A DNA stretch of 26,663 nt from a virus. Taxonomy: Duplodnaviria > Caudoviricetes. The stretch covers positions 1 to 26,663 of IMG/VR virus record IMGVR_UViG_3300037423_001658; one strand, written 5' to 3'. A program made the translations under genes and the position numbers. This document shows positions 10,704-25,612 of the stretch, piece after piece; the first letter of the stretch is position 1; the number at the start of each line of letters is the position of its first letter. The notes under the pieces are model-generated. The model made no database searches. It saw only the letters and a program-made list of their open reading frames with translations, and was not told the DNA's origin.

Positions 10704-10931
10704 TCAGCCCGTGGGTGCATAAAATACCCACTTCGCGCAAAATGACAACGCCCGCTGCCGCGAGGCTTCGTCGCCGTAGCTGTGCGCCACGCCCGCCACC
10801 TGCCGCTGCCCGTCGAAAAGATGCGCGCTCGCGAACCGCTTTCCCGGCCACGACGGGCCCGCGTCGCGATCGTCGAACTCTAGCCGCAAGCCGTTCCGCG
10901 CGGCGCGAGCTTCAGCTTCGGCGACGGTCAA
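10704..10931 (-). CDS. Hypothetical protein (75 aa)
   Basis: TTG start with a purine-rich upstream region; fills the gap in a co-oriented gene chain. Confidence 0.5.
   Translation of the reverse strand: MTVAEAEARAARNGLRLEFDDRDAGPSWPGKRFASAHLFDGQRQVAGVAHSYGDEASRQRALSFCAKWVFYAPTG
10713..10729. promoter_or_regulatory. Putative CI operator upstream of terL (GGGTGCATAAAATACCC)
   Basis: Matches the 17-bp GGGTA-N7-TACCC sites that flank cI. Confidence 0.6.
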
Positions 10932-11450: not shown

Positions 11451-11653
11451 GCGTAAGGCCCTATCCCGGCCATTTCGCGAAACACCGTCCGCGTGTCAGC
11501 CTCCGCGCAGGAGAACTGCTCCTCCGCGTTCGCGAACCTTTCCTGCGCGGCTCTCAGCGCCTCGCGCGCATCCTGTCGCTCCGTGAACGCGTCGCCCAGT
11601 CGCGAGACCGCCTGTTCAATCTTTTTGCGTTCCTCAGCGGTCATCTCTCGCAT
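11447..11653 (-). CDS. Hypothetical coiled-coil protein (68 aa)
   Basis: ATG 11653 (MREMTAEERKK) is preceded by ACAGCCAAGGAG. The ORF-track extension to 11956 overlaps terS and is unlikely. Confidence 0.7.
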   Translation of the reverse strand: MREMTAEERKKIEQAVSRLGDAFTERQDAREALRAAQERFANAEEQFSCAEADTRTVFREMAGIGPYA

Positions 11654-12377
11654 CGTCTTCTCCTTGGCTGTCGAACGGATTGCCGAACGGGTCGCGCGGC
11701 CGCTCGATCGGCACGCGCTCGGAAACATCGGAAATCGGAGGGCGCGCGGATTGGGACACAGGTACGGGACAGGTACCGGCGCCGGGACCCTGAAGCTGAT
11801 CCCCCCCCGGGGGGTCGTCCGCCGGAGGCAATGCCAGCGCCTCAATCGTCCGCAAATCCTCTTGCAACGTGTCCGACATTGCGGGCGGAATGTCGGACAA
11901 TCGGGCCTGTCGCGCTTGGTGCACGCTCTCAATGATCGCTTGCGCTTGCTGCCCATTGACCGCGACGCCGACGTTGACCTGAACGCCAGGGCCGCGCGGC
12001 ATGAGCCCGGTCAATTCTACCAATGAATTCGCGGCCTTAATGCGGTCTTTGCGTAGCGCTTCGGTGTCGCCAGCTATCTCGACAAGCGTGCGGATCGCGA
12101 CCGGCAAACAGGCGTGGGCGAAGGTCGAGCAGCGCGCCAGGATCGCATCGCCGACGCGCTTGCGGCACAGCATTCTGGACGCTTCGACGTGGGCCGATCC
12201 ATCGGGACAGCCAGCTTCGAGGGCGGCTTCGCGAGCCTTTCCACCGTTGCCGATGAACGCGTCCACGAAAATTCGCTCGCGCTCGCTGAGGGCGGACGTG
12301 CCACTTACACTGCCCGTCGCCTCTTGTGTCTCATTCACGGTCGCAATGGCGCGGCTTATCTCCATCGTCGTGGGCAT
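11634..12377 (-). CDS. terS: Terminase small subunit with a long disordered C-terminal tail
   Basis: LSERERIFVDAFIGNGGKAREAALEAG...ASRML.RKRV matches the Terminase_2 HTH pattern; RIKAANSL oligomerisation segment. Start uncertain (12365-12386). Confidence 0.8.
   Translation of the reverse strand: MPTTMEISRAIATVNETQEATGSVSGTSALSERERIFVDAFIGNGGKAREAALEAGCPDGSAHVEASRMLCRKRVGDAILARCSTFAHACLPVAIRTLVEIAGDTEALRKDRIKAANSLVELTGLMPRGPGVQVNVGVAVNGQQAQAIIESVHQARQARLSDIPPAMSDTLQEDLRTIEALALPPADDPPGGDQLQGPGAGTCPVPVSQSARPPISDVSERVPIERPRDPFGNPFDSQGEDDARDDR
11870..11899. repeat. Perfect 11-bp inverted repeat TGTCCGACATT-N8-AATGTCGGACA inside terS
   Basis: Read directly; each arm contains a TGTCnGACA palindrome. 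Confidence 0.85.
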
Positions 12378-12405
12378 CTCACGCACCCAATGCGACGGTC
12401 AATGC

Positions 12406-12537
12406 TGTAACCGAACGTAACCCGAATTTCCCTAGAGACAGTCTAACAATTAAATGTGTCTGACATACCACTATATATGTCCGACAAATTTAAACTCTGT
12501 ATGCTCTCTAGGGAATTCAGGGTTACACTCGGTTACA
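12406..12537. repeat. 33-bp imperfect inverted repeat around a 66-bp AT-rich core; putative replication origin
   Basis: Arms 12406-12438 and 12505-12537, each with two GTAACC units; core is about 33% GC. Confidence 0.7.
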
Positions 12538-12991
12538 AAAGCAGCCAGACAGGCAGGTCTTCAGCACCTTGCTTGCGCTCGATCTTGAGTTCCCAGCCGA
12601 GTTCAGCGAGCACCATTTCGACGCCTTTGCGCTGGCCGATTTGGGCTGTGGTCGGATCAATTTGCAGCGCGTTCTCAAGCACTTCGTCAACGGTGACGCG
12701 GTCGCGGCCGGACAGCCAAGGCTCGACCGCTCGCCGGTATGGATGCTCGCCTTCATGTTGGTGCGCGACCACGCGCGGACGGCCTCGCGGAGTGACGTGA
12801 ACGATTTCCGGCGCGTCGTCTTTGTCCTGGACGAGCGCCAGTGGCGGCAGTGAGGGCTTCTCAGCGACCCAGCGCTTCAGGATTTTCGTTATGAGTGAGG
12901 AGGTTGAGCGGTCATCGGCCACCGCATACGCCTCCAGCGAGCGCTTCAGCTCGCGATTGATCCGAATTGAGATCGTGGCGTCTTGGCTCAT
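12533..12991 (-). CDS. Ribbon-helix-helix protein fused to a paralogue of the VapE helicase C-terminal domain (152 aa)
   Basis: Start ATG 12991 with SD AGGAG. ATISIRINRELKRSLEAYAVADDRSTSSLITKIL is an Arc/CopG-like RHH. The C-terminus aligns by eye with the end of the 764-aa protein. Confidence 0.8.
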   Translation of the reverse strand: MSQDATISIRINRELKRSLEAYAVADDRSTSSLITKILKRWVAEKPSLPPLALVQDKDDAPEIVHVTPRGRPRVVAHQHEGEHPYRRAVEPWLSGRDRVTVDEVLENALQIDPTTAQIGQRKGVEMVLAELGWELKIERKQGAEDLPVWLLL

Positions 12992-13017
12992 GGTCGTTCG
13001 CTCCTGTTGTGCCGCGT

Positions 13018-13047
13018 TGTAATACATTGACGCACAAACGACTGCAA
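13018..13047 (-). promoter_or_regulatory. Putative leftward promoter of the RHH gene (TTGCAG-N17-TATTAC) overlapped by palindrome TGTAATACA
   Basis: Canonical spacing; the palindrome at 13018-13026 covers the -10 element. Confidence 0.55.
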
Positions 13048-13054
13048 TGAGCGC

Positions 13055-13083
13055 TTGACTTGCGTGGGTATAAAATGTACCCG
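13055..13083 (+). promoter_or_regulatory. Rightward promoter TTGACT with putative CI operator GGGTATAAAATGTACCC (13066-13082)
   Basis: Same TTGAC + 5 nt + operator geometry as the promoter at 21712. Confidence 0.75.
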
Positions 13084-13133
13084 TGAGCGCTGGGCGTGTA
13101 ATGCGCCCGCTCACAGCCAAGGAGTGAAACCCG

Positions 13134-13421
13134 ATGCCAAAGACAGTCATCGAAGTGCAGACGAAAGGCGACGCCTCGACCATGCCGGGAGGGATCGCGC
13201 TGCGTGCCCATCCGGGCGGCGGGTCGTTCATGGTTCAGGACTTCTACTTCCAGCGCGACGGAGAGCGCACCTACAGCTGCGGAGCCTATGACCTGACGCT
13301 GGTCGAAGCTCTGGAGGAGTTCCACCGTCGAGCAAAGCGCGCCGAGCGATACGACGCAGGTGGCGCGCTGCTGCCGGAGACGGTGTCAGGCCGCGAGATG
13401 CCGCAACAGGTGACAGCATGA
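13134..13421 (+). CDS. Hypothetical early protein (95 aa)
   Basis: Preceded by promoter, hairpin and ACAGCCAAGGAG. Confidence 0.8.
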   Translation: MPKTVIEVQTKGDASTMPGGIALRAHPGGGSFMVQDFYFQRDGERTYSCGAYDLTLVEALEEFHRRAKRAERYDAGGALLPETVSGREMPQQVTA

Positions 13422-13591
13422 GCGCCGCCTTTGCACCGCGCGAAGTCAGCGCCGCCGTGGAGCTGATCCGCGACGCGCTGGGCGAGCGCTTCAGCTGCAA
13501 CGCCGTCCGCATCGTGAGCGATGACGAAATCGCAATCGAAGACGACGCGGGCGAGGATTGGTGCATCATCGTGCGGGAGCCGGGAGCATGA
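13418..13591 (+). CDS. Small acidic hypothetical protein (57 aa)
   Basis: Not in the ORF track; ATGA-coupled at both ends; MSAAFAPREVSAAVELIRDALGERFSCNAVRIVSDDEIAIEDDAGEDWCIIVREPGA. Confidence 0.7.
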   Translation: MSAAFAPREVSAAVELIRDALGERFSCNAVRIVSDDEIAIEDDAGEDWCIIVREPGA

Positions 13592-13776
13592 GCGCGCGCC
13601 TCGCGTCGCTCCAGATGAGCGTTGGCCGCGATTACGAGACGGCCACCCGCTACGAATTCGTTCTGTACGATGACGATCGCGTGATTGCTCGCGCGGGCGG
13701 GTTCGCATCGCGCCACCAAGCCGCGAAGGGAGGCCGCTGGAAAGCTCAGCAGCTGCTCAACGGTGGCCGCGCATGA
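13588..13776 (+). CDS. Hypothetical protein (62 aa)
   Basis: ATGA-coupled start at 13588 (MSARLASLQ...), SD GGGAG. Confidence 0.7.
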   Translation: MSARLASLQMSVGRDYETATRYEFVLYDDDRVIARAGGFASRHQAAKGGRWKAQQLLNGGRA

Positions 13777-14000
13777 CCGCCCGTCAACGCCGTGCCGCAT
13801 GGCTCGAAGCGGCAAACGAGCGTCGCCAGCGCGAGGCGCGAACCGTCGCAATAGCGTCGTTCGTCATCTTCGCACTCGCGTTCGGCTTCGGCCTGGGGCT
13901 CACCACGGTCGAGGGCGTGAACGAGGTTTTCCCGGTCATGCTCACGGTCGTTGCGTTCTGCGCGCTCGTCCTGGGCGTCGCCGCGGCCGGAGAAGCCTGA
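13773..14000 (+). CDS. Small two-TM membrane protein (75 aa)
   Basis: Basic N-terminus followed by two hydrophobic helices; ATGA coupling. Confidence 0.75.
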   Translation: MTARQRRAAWLEAANERRQREARTVAIASFVIFALAFGFGLGLTTVEGVNEVFPVMLTVVAFCALVLGVAAAGEA

Positions 14001-14075
14001 AACTGACGCGCTCTGGCGGGCCGGTGCGATCGACCCGCCTAACCGCATCAGCGGACCACAGCCAGGAGAACGAGA

Positions 14076-14426
14076 ATGCAAATTCTCATCACCAAGGAAA
14101 TCAACGCGCAGCTGCTCGCGAACGGCCAGCGGGCGCTAGAGGGCAAAGACACCAGCAACACCAAGCCGGTGCTGAAGCTGTTCAACCCATGCGGCGGCGC
14201 CACGTGGCTAATCAGCGAGCGCGATCCTGAAGAGCCGGACCTGTTGTTCGGGCTTTGCGACCTTGGGTTCGGATGCCCTGAGATTGGCCGCGTGTCGCTC
14301 GCCGAGATTGAGGCGCTGCGCCTTCCGTTCGGCCTTCGGATTGAGCGGGACATTCATTTCAAGGCGACGAAGACGCTCATCGAATACGCCGACGAAGCGC
14401 GGGCGAAGGGGAGCATCGCCGCCTGA
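14076..14426 (+). CDS. DUF2958 family protein (116 aa)
   Basis: KLFNPCGGATWLISE..P...LFGLCDLGFGCPE.G.VSL.E...GL.IERD.HF signature. Confidence 0.88.
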   Translation: MQILITKEINAQLLANGQRALEGKDTSNTKPVLKLFNPCGGATWLISERDPEEPDLLFGLCDLGFGCPEIGRVSLAEIEALRLPFGLRIERDIHFKATKTLIEYADEARAKGSIAA

Positions 14427-14505
14427 CTGCAACCCCAGCGGGCGACGTCAGAGGTCGCCCGCTCAAGATGCAGCCACGCATCGCCCACAGCCAGGGAGCA
14501 ACACG

Positions 14506-15014: not shown

Positions 15015-15122
15015 CCCGCACGGACCAGCGACCGCAGCCGACTCCAACAATTGTTGTTGCATTCGTGCACTGTCCCGTTTCGAGCCGACGAACGGGTCCT
15101 TTACGTCGATCAATGACATGGT

Positions 15123-15139
15123 TGGTTCATAATATACCC
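15123..15139. promoter_or_regulatory. Putative CI operator (TGGTTCATAATATACCC)
   Basis: Degenerate match to the 17-bp consensus in an AT-rich intergenic region. Confidence 0.55.
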
Positions 15140-15179
15140 GCCATGAAACCGGCGCTCGGGGAAAGGACGAAAAACGCAA

Positions 15180-15395
15180 ATGGTTCATACGGTTATCAGT
15201 CAATTAAGCACGCTGGACCGGCCACAGCTGGAGCAGGTAATCAGCGAATTAGTGATTATGGCGGGAATGACCCCGCTGAAGCAGCTGGCTATGCCGCCGG
15301 CGGTGGAGGGAGTGCCGTGGACAGAGTGTTGGGAACGTGGACTAGACCGGATCGAGCGGCTGGGTCGGAAAGCCGCCTATCACCGCGCCGCGTAG
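15180..15395 (+). CDS. Hypothetical protein (71 aa)
   Basis: AAGGA upstream; follows an operator-like site; locally lower GC. Confidence 0.55.
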   Translation: MVHTVISQLSTLDRPQLEQVISELVIMAGMTPLKQLAMPPAVEGVPWTECWERGLDRIERLGRKAAYHRAA

Positions 15396-15660: not shown

Positions 15661-17955
15661 TCAGACGAACGGGACGTCGTCTTGCGGTCCCACGACAGGC
15701 CCTGCCGGCGCCCGCTCGCGCCACCACTCGGGCGCGATGAAGACCTTCGAAACCTTGCCCTCGAACCGCTCGATGTTCGGTATCCAGCCGAGCGCGCGGA
15801 GGCACGCGCCAGCGATGCGAGCGTGCCGCGGTTCCTGCCGATCGGCGTCCAGCTTAACGCCGTCCTTCAGCACGCGAGCGACCGACACTTTCTCGACCTG
15901 CTCAGCCCGGAGCCAGCTTTCCAGCACCGGCTCCCACGGGTGAACCTCGCGGCGCTTCGCCTGTTCGGCCTTCGCTTCGGCAATGTCGTCGTCGCTATCG
16001 AGATGCCACTTCTCGCCGGCGACGAACGCGGCAACGGCTTCGGCCCATAGCTGATCGCGGTCGCGCAGGATCGCGTCCGTGTCGATGCGCGTCGTCTCGA
16101 TAGGCCAGAAGCGCCGTGCGCCCGTCGGGTCGCGCAGATAGCCGCCCTCTTCCGGGTTCACCGTGCCCCAAAACACCGAGCGGCGCGGGACCTGGATGGG
16201 GAGTCGGCCGAACGGCGGGCGGAATTTGTCGACGAGGCGGGACAGGAACTGCTTCACGTCCTTGACGTCCGCCTTCGACAGCGCCGACAGCTCGGCCACT
16301 TCGACGCACCATGCGCCCTGCAGCTGCTGGAAGCTGTCCTTCGAATGAAAGTCCGGCAGGTGGTCGATGAAGAACCGATCCCCGAACAGGTAGCGCAGCG
16401 CCGTCGACTTGCCGGTCCCCTGATCGCCCTCCAGCACCGGCATTGTGTCGTTCTTGCAGCCGGGGCTGAGAGCCCGGGCGACAGCACCGACGAGCGACTT
16501 GCGGCCGACCGTGTGCGTGTACGTCGTGGCCGGCGCGCCGAGATAGTCGGTCAGCCACGTGTCGATGCGCGGCTTGCGGTCCCACTTCAGGCCCTGCAGG
16601 TACTCGGTGAGCGGGTCGAATTGGTTGCGCCGAGCGTCGGCTTCCATTTCGTCCTGGACGTCGCCCTTCTTCGCCTTGAAGCGCTCCGCGTGCATGATCC
16701 GCCGGAATTCGGCGACGTGGAAATCCTCGAGGCTGTTGCCGTCCAGCTCCATCTCTTTCGTGAGCTGGTTGAAGCGGAGCCGACCTTTGAGGAGGCGATG
16801 GTTCGCAATGTAGATCGCCACGCCTTCGACGTTGTTGCCGTCCGGGTTGCCCGACGACGCCATTGGAATTGTCGCGCGCCAGCTTTCGTCCTGCACCCGG
16901 TCGATGGGGATGATCGCCGCGCCTGGCTCCGCGTCCTCCGCTTCGACCGAGCGCATGGCGCCGATGACTTGGCCGGCGACGGCTTTCTCGCCTTCGCGCA
17001 GGAACAAGTCGTTGAAGTCCGTCCGGTCGCGCGCTTGCCCATCCTTGAACACGGGCAGGATCCAGCGACAGCCGACCGCCTTCGCAGCGGCTTCGGCTTT
17101 CTTCCGGCCGACGTTCTCCCACGCGCGACCTTGCCCGCGCTCATCCCAATCGCTCGGCGCGATCGCGTCGTCGTCGGCTGCGATCATCAGCGTTGCGAGC
17201 GGGCGGTGCCGTGCGAAATCCTTGGCGACCGGGACGAGGTTCGAGGCGTTGAACGCAGCGACGACTGAGACACCGGTCGCTTGCCAGATCGAGAACGCCG
17301 TCGCCACGCCCTCGCAGATGACGATGAGCGAGGCGTCGCCTTTGATCGAGAAGAACGTCCCCTCGACGCGACCGCCCTTCAGGAACGTCTTCTTCCCGTC
17401 GCCGTCGATCAGCTGCAGGTTGGTGAGCTGCGGCTGGCCGTTCATGTCGAACGACCACATCGGCACCGCGAGCAGCCGAGTCCCGTCGCGAGCGGTGAAG
17501 ACGCGCAAGCCCCGTGGGACCGTGATCCCCTTGCGCTCCAGGTACGGATGCCCTTCGACGTCGCCGGACGAGCGACCCCATTTGTTGCTGGCGTCCTCCG
17601 CAATCTCGGCCTGGCGCGTCTCGCGAGCCTGAGCCGCTTCCGCCTTCATCTTCGCCTGTTCGCGCTTGATCGCGGCGCGCTCGTCCTTCGTCAGCTCGCC
17701 GCGCTCGGGATCATGGTAGAACCACTGATGCTGCTCGCCGAGCTTCCAGTCGCCGAACCAACCGACCGGATAGCGCCCCGTCTTCAGCTTGTAGAAGCCG
17801 TTGCCCTTGCCCGCTTTGTCGCCGGGAGCATCGAAGCGCACGAACCCCGGCGTGTCGGGCTGCACGGGTCCGTGGATGATGAAGCCGGCGCGCTCCATCT
17901 CCGCGCGAAACGCGCGTTCGACGTCCGATGATGAGGGGTCCGGGCGAGCGGCCAT
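15661..17955 (-). CDS. TOPRIM primase fused to a VapE-family helicase (764 aa)
   Basis: TOPRIM VICEGVATA, IAADDD, TDFNDL; helicase EGDQGTGKST, VEVAEL, FRPPFGR, GTVN, DPTGARRFWPI, RDQLWAEA. Confidence 0.93.
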   Translation of the reverse strand: MAARPDPSSSDVERAFRAEMERAGFIIHGPVQPDTPGFVRFDAPGDKAGKGNGFYKLKTGRYPVGWFGDWKLGEQHQWFYHDPERGELTKDERAAIKREQAKMKAEAAQARETRQAEIAEDASNKWGRSSGDVEGHPYLERKGITVPRGLRVFTARDGTRLLAVPMWSFDMNGQPQLTNLQLIDGDGKKTFLKGGRVEGTFFSIKGDASLIVICEGVATAFSIWQATGVSVVAAFNASNLVPVAKDFARHRPLATLMIAADDDAIAPSDWDERGQGRAWENVGRKKAEAAAKAVGCRWILPVFKDGQARDRTDFNDLFLREGEKAVAGQVIGAMRSVEAEDAEPGAAIIPIDRVQDESWRATIPMASSGNPDGNNVEGVAIYIANHRLLKGRLRFNQLTKEMELDGNSLEDFHVAEFRRIMHAERFKAKKGDVQDEMEADARRNQFDPLTEYLQGLKWDRKPRIDTWLTDYLGAPATTYTHTVGRKSLVGAVARALSPGCKNDTMPVLEGDQGTGKSTALRYLFGDRFFIDHLPDFHSKDSFQQLQGAWCVEVAELSALSKADVKDVKQFLSRLVDKFRPPFGRLPIQVPRRSVFWGTVNPEEGGYLRDPTGARRFWPIETTRIDTDAILRDRDQLWAEAVAAFVAGEKWHLDSDDDIAEAKAEQAKRREVHPWEPVLESWLRAEQVEKVSVARVLKDGVKLDADRQEPRHARIAGACLRALGWIPNIERFEGKVSKVFIAPEWWRERAPAGPVVGPQDDVPFV

Positions 17956-25090: not shown

Positions 25091-25232
25091 GCTCCACGAC
25101 AGCGAGCATTGGGCTCGCGTCCACATCGAGAGTGACCGGAGCAAGCCGGTCGACATCGCCGACCGCCCGCGCGGACGCGGAGTCGTGTTCAGCCTGTGGC
25201 CCAGCCGCAAGCCGAAGGAGCAGGGCGAGTGA
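25071..25232 (+). CDS. Hypothetical protein (53 aa)
   Basis: Not in the ORF track; G-rich SD; its stop overlaps the GTG of the next gene. Confidence 0.55.
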   Translation: MQQQKDKLHDSEHWARVHIESDRSKPVDIADRPRGRGVVFSLWPSRKPKEQGE

Positions 25233-25612
25233 GCAACCTAGACGGCGGTCGCCTGGACCCGGATCAGGCACAGAAGCTGTGGAACCACATTCGCGCGCTC
25301 GAGACGCTCGAAGAGGCGAAGGCGGACCTGAACCTCGACATCAAAGCCCGCAAGGAGCTGGCGAAGGCGGACGGGTTCGACAACAACATCATGGCCGTGA
25401 TCCTGAAGCGCCGGAAGATCGGCGAGGGTCAGACGCTCGCGGCCGACAACCTGATCCGGCTCTACGAGGAGGCGCTTGAGCAGCAGGGCGCACTGCCGCT
25501 CGAACGCACCCGCGTCCCCGTGAGCCAACGCCGTTCGACGGAGCAGATCGCCGAAGACCTGCACGGTGAACCCCCGCCGGAGAATGTCCGGCCAAGCCAA
25601 GGAGACGAGTAG
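25229..25612 (+). CDS. GapR-like (DUF2312) DNA-binding protein (127 aa)
   Basis: L..HIRALETLEEAKADL..DIK.....AKADGFD......IL..RK...L..LY..AL pattern. Confidence 0.85.
   Translation: MSNLDGGRLDPDQAQKLWNHIRALETLEEAKADLNLDIKARKELAKADGFDNNIMAVILKRRKIGEGQTLAADNLIRLYEEALEQQGALPLERTRVPVSQRRSTEQIAEDLHGEPPPENVRPSQGDE

Follow-up and report, generated by a model that had tools for sequence, protein, structure and literature searches.

A small phage protein family joining a ribbon-helix-helix head, an AT-hook-like motif and a paralog of the VapE helicase tail, encoded beside a putative replication origin

Introduction

Why should a temperate phage keep, at the edge of its putative replication origin and some 3 kb from its replicative helicase, a second version of the helicase's C-terminal winged helix? 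The question is raised by a gene of 152 codons in a 26,663-nucleotide stretch of viral DNA, here called the window, a 26.7-kb piece of a temperate phage genome. Besides the genes listed below, the window encodes a P22-like portal, capsid and terminase genes, an SF2 helicase and an S24 repressor, and the phage is also represented by a 43-kb record, in which terminal repeats and integrases are found. Positions 11600-14500 are identical in one public assembly, which may be the source sample; no RNA data set was listed as carrying the sequence. Relatives of the helicase are found in two named genomes, both Sphingomonas, which suggests the host group of the phage. The features of the locus considered first are:

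11634..12386, minus strand: terminase small subunit gene (terS); phrog_51, E 3.5e-6; PF03592 below the cut-off
12406..12537, no strand: putative replication origin, an inverted repeat with iterons, two (T/C)GTAACC facing two GGTTACA
12533..12991, minus strand: gene for the ribbon-helix-helix (RHH)/AT-hook-like/winged-helix protein, 152 aa, read as an ORF
15661..17955, minus strand: Toprim-VapE primase-helicase gene, 764 aa; PF05272 E 1e-78, PF13362; 7PDS E 4e-40
15721-15948, minus strand: part of the same gene, the basic C-terminal winged helix of the helicase, aa 670-745

The 152-aa reading frame has a GGAG site about 10 nt 5′ of its ATG; a gene caller places the start further upstream, giving 164 aa. 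Its TAA stop codon (12533-12535) lies within the first iteron of the element, which is directly followed by terS in the same orientation. In runs X9 and X10 coverage is missing over the gene; this was set aside as uninformative, since the tool filters records. Elsewhere in the window, a GapR-like DNA-binding protein (PF10073) is encoded at 25196-25612 in the early operon, near a YqaJ exonuclease and an HNH-NUMOD4 gene, and a second low-GC intergenic stretch (15090-15210, 45% GC) is located 5′ of ORF 15180.

The helicase and the putative origin

The only solved sequence match of the window helicase is Rep1 of SaPI1 (7PDS, E 4e-40), and the fused winged helix in turn matches the fold of the Rep1 tail. 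In SaPIs, the tails of the Rep helicases bind the origin and the helicases are self-loading (PMC9371898; bioRxiv 10.64898/2026.10.17.759575). In SaPI5 PriRep5, the C-terminal winged helix is described as reading the iteron, and mutations in its basic wing abolish binding (bioRxiv 10.64898/2026.10.17.759575). The premise of an earlier, sequence-only reading of this locus, that tails of such helicases bind the origin, has thus been published in the case of SaPI Reps, among which SaPI1 Rep1 is the relative of the window helicase with a solved structure.

The element at 12406-12537 has two 33-nt arms, 85% complementary, and between its repeats a 66-nt core of 33% GC; within this core an inner inverted repeat has arms of 18 nt (12450-12467 and 12476-12493). 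It holds four of the ten GTAAC/GTTAC pentamers in the window, together with the window's lowest-GC 100 nt. Four pentamers occurred in 1 of 20000 block shuffles, and the inverted-repeat score was reached in 0 of 300. The description of the gene's neighbor as origin-like, an inverted repeat with opposed GTAAC iterons about an AT-rich core, is upheld. The plan is that of SaPI origins, with at least two opposed short repeats on each side of an AT-rich core, and the window's TGTAACC is one base off the SaPI5 iteron, TGCAACC (bioRxiv 10.64898/2026.10.17.759575). There are also differences. The SaPI origin lies directly after rep, whereas the window element is separated from the helicase gene by 3.1 kb of divergent early genes and adjoins a free paralog of the tail; no accessory factor is known for SaPIs, whereas here the paralog gene stands at the element.

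GTAAC arrays are found beside primase or primase-helicase genes in three of four unrelated contigs. The L086 array falls within a D5-like helicase gene, at its 3′ end; that of L088 comes just after an AEP primase gene and that of L055 just before a D5-like gene. A DNA pattern scan covering 120 of about 180 stretches gave 47 distinct flanks, mostly coding coincidences, and a VapE core at only 2 of the 120 scanned loci, both from the window's phage group. A very dense array of 17 GTAAC/GTTAC pentamers in 350 nt was seen at L017:3700-4250, with a gpA-type terminase gene some 1 kb away. From its architecture, 12406-12537 is most likely a replication origin. Since the element adjoins terS in every case, and the L017 array is near a terminase gene, it may have a packaging or late-promoter role.

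The RHH head and the AT-hook-like linker

The 152-aa protein can be divided as follows:

12857..12985, minus strand: Arc-like RHH domain, aa 3-45; phrog_582 E 1.1e-5, model pLDDT >90, RHH fold matches at Z ~6
12773..12790, minus strand: AT-hook-like PRGRPR, aa 68-73, in a low-confidence linker; GRP core in 20 of 22 family members
12542..12745, minus strand: winged helix, a paralog of the VapE helicase tail depleted of basic residues, aa 83-150; from sequence, profile, fold and tree

In the predicted model of the whole protein (pLDDT 86), a linker of low confidence separates the RHH from the winged helix. Structural matches of the RHH to PutA, CopA and Arc, with Z 5.8-6.6, together with the phrog_582 match (E 1e-5), bear out the N-terminal RHH proposed earlier. 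The head resembles the Arc/Mnt/CopG autorepressors in sequence and fold; the 152-aa protein adds to it an AT-hook-like motif and a winged helix.

In the predicted model PRGRPR sits between the two folded domains. The motif and its GRP core fit the AT-hook definition in PMC11354804; the Pfam AT-hook model has no match in the family. Judged by its sequence, a GRP motif with R/K and P flanks in a flexible segment is AT-hook-like, and it constitutes a third part of the protein that the sequence-only reading missed. An AT-hook together with another DNA-binding module at an AT-rich origin is also described for S. pombe Orc4 and EBV EBNA1 (PMC11354804); these are eukaryotic, unrelated in sequence and have multiple hooks, and the likeness is one of analogy only. 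The same hook-plus-winged-helix unit stands behind a different RHH subfamily in L136:17129-17635 and in P0015, which implies that the head was swapped or that fusion took place a second time.

The winged-helix tail and its family

Residues 83-142 align with helicase residues 672-733 at 29% identity (pairwise E 4e-5), a score reached by 0 of 2000 shuffles. A profile of the fusion family matches a profile of nine helicase tails over 72 columns at 97.4% probability (E 1.3e-11). The fused winged-helix model superimposes on the SaPI1 Rep1 tail (7PDS 346-467) with Z 5.1 and rmsd 2.4 over 66 residues, a Z-score within the common-fold range and similar to that given by many winged helices. Foldseek on the 152-aa model gave nothing at E 0.001 or better. 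Taken together, the profile comparison and the match to the Rep1 tail fold confirm that the winged helices of the protein and the helicase are homologous.

The search for fusions of an RHH with such a tail yielded a family. Among 1.84 billion representatives there were 20 profile matches, of which sixteen are 140-161 aa long, three have the RHH alone and one is a protein with tandem tails. With two sequences from another search and three from prophage loci also taken in, 22 members were aligned; they are 140-168 aa long, 17-53% identical and have no ATPase domain. T100, G132, the fold core and the terminal Trp are retained down to 17% identity, and retention of the core and the Trp implies selection on a folded domain. 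Word-based searches had given only the window protein itself, and the possibility of a chance chimera unique to this phage was dropped when the profile search found the family. A partition adaptor of the ParG kind was likewise rejected: 15 of the 22 match phrog_2685 through the RHH, but ParA (PF13614) is in 0 of 5 tested records, not all of them complete, and an integrase is in 5 of 5.

The whole protein is covered by no Pfam, PHROGs or NCBIfam model. Its atlas look-alikes are unnamed clusters and DUF3874, all scoring below 0.9. The nearest named look-alike of residues 62-152 is the group of stand-alone DUF3874 clusters (74-97 aa; score 0.87, a lead only), and DUF3874 is given as the C-terminal domain of VirE/VapE proteins in PMC11724360. 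The 152-aa family differs in having no Pfam match to DUF3874, for whose clusters no RHH or hook is reported. The earlier statement that the architecture was not recognised as described stands as far as the literature searched, from which subscription journals were mostly absent and in which no paper describing it was found.

Among 401 family-level and 401 order-level genomes sampled around S. baiyangensis, the sole full-length member is in S. baiyangensis, the other matches being RHH-only. No new clear member was found at 34 viral terL loci, at 23 genome terL loci (1.5-kb flanks) or in two stretches of G874. G874:C6 has two related terL copies 28 kb apart, at ~21000 and ~49000, with apparently duplicated upstream sequence. 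Cultured phages and plasmids gave RHH-part or short weak matches only, those in cultured phages spanning residues 1-50. Two other proteins contain domains of the helicase-tail type: P0022 (251 aa, no Pfam match) has two basic ones in tandem, and at L132:1310-2002, minus strand, a Bro-N domain is fused to a basic winged helix with a weak profile match to the VapE tail (E ~0.06).

Synteny among relatives

Seven independent phages of the window's group are readable at the slot before terS; L132 ends inside an RHH gene, and L129, L131 and L133 stop short of the slot. In four of the seven the gene is followed directly by an AT-rich inverted-repeat element and then terS, with all three co-oriented: the window, L134, and prophages of S. 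baiyangensis (L135/L137) and S. liriopis (L136). The synteny is thus conserved among related phages, genomic context being available for 4 of the 22 family members. A probable fifth case is L169:3592-4296, a colinear, hook-bearing ORF of 235 aa with a weak match (E 0.025), followed by an AT-rich block with different repeats and then terS.

In three of the four cases, the window, L134 and L137, the gene's stop codon falls within or between the repeats, which in L137 are a GAAAC variant; in L136 a different palindrome is found 15-35 nt downstream of the gene. Given that the SaPI origin directly follows the helicase gene, the end of the tail-coding sequence at the repeats looks like the trace of an ancestral arrangement. 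The element occupies the same slot in L005, L007 and L134. L005/L006, whose helicase is 84% identical to that of the window, and L007 keep the GTAAC element and have no copy of the gene across their records, so the gene is accessory.

These findings bring up the reading that the gene is a relic, the stranded 3′ end of an old helicase gene, fused to a repressor and kept without function because it overlaps the origin. The overlap of the stop codon with the repeats, the dispensability of the gene in two relatives and the abundance of stand-alone RHH genes of the same kind all fit. Such a relic is nonetheless the least probable of the explanations considered, since the fold persists in 22 members, along with T100, G132 and the terminal Trp, at identities down to 17%, the model is confident, and two RHH subfamilies (in L136 and P0015) have the same hook-plus-tail unit.

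Ancestry and loss of charge in the tail

A 35-domain tree places all 22 fused tails on one side of a branch (93/88, not starred) and ten helicase tails with three other copies on the other; hel_P0003 was dropped as a duplicate of L005. The fused tail of the window is 25% identical to the tail of its own helicase and 31% to that of L007. Recent duplication of the phage's own helicase tail was rejected by the AU test, at p 4.5e-5 when only the window pair was grouped and at p 0.001 when the three closest helicases were included; the test used a quick LG+G4 tree with hel_P0003, acc_L137, acc_P0020 and acc_P0014 left out. The earlier term "duplicated copy" thus holds as deep paralogy and fails as a recent copy, and on sequence comparison the fused domain is an old paralog of the VapE helicase tail.

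R706, Q707, G716 and R720 are kept in all ten helicase tails and are found in 2, 2, 1 and 0 of the 22 fusions. With respect to charge, K or R is present at R720 in 10/10 helicases vs. 0/22 fusions, at R706 in 10/10 vs. 2/22 and at wing position K734 in 8/10 vs. 2/22. Over helicase residues 709-739 the net charge is +4 to +8 in the ten helicases and −7 to +4 in the 22 fusions. Mean helix-plus-wing charge is +6.1 in helicase tails and −1.3 in fusions (+4 and −1 in the window pair), in a comparison that ignores relatedness, the rows not being independent. Acidic residues occur at position 130 (11/22) and two places after GW (16/22). The R713, R730 and K737 positions are still basic in 11, 8 and 10 of the 22. 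The fused tail of the window retains K122, K136, R139 and K140, has P in place of K737, and its second wing strand is acidic (E144, D145). The Bro-N-fused and tandem copies stay basic, +4 to +8 in three rows; the domain is thus mobile, and the loss of charge is specific to the 22-member family.

The basic helix and wing residues with which VapE/SaPI Rep tails contact DNA, mapped by analogy with PriRep5, are mostly absent from the family. The claim that the fused domain has the helicase's origin specificity is not supported, R706, Q707, G716, R720 and mostly K734 being lost; with most of the helicase-invariant basic residues gone, such specificity is unlikely. The 152-aa protein is outside the origin-binding tail family as that family is functionally defined. 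The domain may yet bind DNA, given that R713 and K737 are basic in about half of the family and that the window copy has the basic residues named above.

The same residues bear on the proposal of the sequence-only reading that the protein is a decoy, binding the helicase's iterons and competing for them; copy-number control, a replication-to-packaging switch and incompatibility were its candidate roles. In its favor are the real homology to the helicase tail, the place of the window copy in the sub-branch nearest the helicases and the retention of R139/K140 in the first wing strand. Nevertheless, invariant helicase residues are lost and the second wing strand is acidic; the window and L134 have GTAAC repeats in common though their fusion proteins are only 22% identical; and wing mutants of the SaPI5 protein lose DNA binding. 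A decoy is therefore considered very unlikely.

Promoter, operators and transcription

Two further features lie upstream of the gene:

13007..13037, no strand: imperfect palindrome spanning a promoter picked out by eye for the gene (TTGCAG-17-TATTAC, minus strand), candidate autoregulatory operator
13066..13082, no strand: GGGTA-N7-TACCC box at the divergent early promoter, one of five such boxes in the window

The palindrome noted earlier in the promoter is present, and taken alone it is not beyond chance, as 43 of 300 shuffles matched it. A sigma-70 scan gave no site at the gene's promoter. The five GGGTA-N7-TACCC boxes (at 10713, 13066, 20964, 21000 and 21723) compare with 0.08 expected. 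Two are between HTH and S24-repressor genes, and one between terS and terL, which suggests repressor control inside the packaging region. The box at 13066-13082 is likely an operator of a CI-like repressor and not of the RHH protein. Boxes like these can also be seen upstream in L005, L132 and L137.

A terminator scan found none between the gene, the element and terS, which fits a transcriptional explanation. RHH autorepression would set how much transcription reads through the element into terS and would thereby control late genes or the transcriptional activation of the origin, and the winged helix would be an RNA-polymerase contact or oligomerisation module. Late regulators are often located just before terS, the head is Arc-like, and the three elements are co-oriented in all four syntenic cases. 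This explanation leaves the module's paralogy to an origin-binding tail and the AT-hook beside an AT-rich core unexplained, and two relatives lacking the gene keep the same element-terS junction. It is unlikely, though it still carries appreciable weight.

Proposed function

Cnr of phage P4 acts on the winged helix of the P4 alpha protein and has itself been modelled as a winged helix. We propose, with a probability of roughly 0.4, that the 152-aa protein is an autoregulated brake on origin firing, tethered at the origin and contacting the helicase, and that it works like Cnr. The GTAAC element would serve as the origin, and the helicase tail would recognise it as Rep tails do in SaPIs. The RHH dimer would repress its own promoter, which would keep the amount of protein steady and might do so in the lysogen as well, given the CI-like box at the divergent promoter. 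AT-hooks would hold the dimer on the AT-rich core, where the less basic winged helix could pair with or mask the basic tail of the helicase and damp initiation. The outcome may be a silent prophage origin, a limit on copy number or a hand-over to packaging at the adjacent terS.

According to PMC8628076, Cnr is a small accessory gene that controls the copy number of a primase-helicase replicon. It differs from the window protein, which has both an RHH and an AT-hook-like motif, in having neither, and in being located upstream of alpha; P4 alpha is D5-like, whereas the window helicase is of the VapE type. No Cnr-named family is found among the Pfam, PHROGs and NCBIfam matches of 17-22 members. 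Some observations count against a helicase-contacting brake. A tight protein partner might co-evolve, whereas neither identity nor the tree shows the fusion tails following the helicases of their own phages; moreover, L005/L006 and L007 do without the gene.

The opposite action, that of a positive loader tethered through the RHH and AT-hook and recruiting the helicase hexamer through the winged helix, would fit the same anatomy and position. Papillomavirus E2 is the model for such a role. AT-hooks are described as recruiting initiators in S. pombe Orc4 and EBNA1 (PMC11354804). As helicases of the SaPI kind are self-loading, and L005/L006 lack the gene with a helicase so close to that of the window, a loader is quite unlikely.

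A more specific conjecture, speculative and on the unlikely side, is that a phage family duplicated the origin-binding winged helix of its helicase and reversed its charge, and that the copy, tethered to the origin by the RHH dimer and a eukaryote-style AT-hook, binds and inhibits the helicase as a mimic of DNA or of a neighboring subunit. The protein would then be an origin-licensing factor, under which the origin stays silent in the prophage, and it could block related superinfecting phages with the same iterons.

Significance

For phages and islands whose VapE/SF3 helicases load themselves, P4 Cnr is, to our knowledge, the one well-known accessory regulator that limits origin firing. The 152-aa family, with members in prophages of two named Sphingomonas species, is a small and testable candidate regulator, for which the window and L005 provide a natural pair with and without the gene. 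It presents a conserved AT-hook-like motif in a bacteriophage protein and a DNA-binding domain that has apparently been repurposed by loss of charge.
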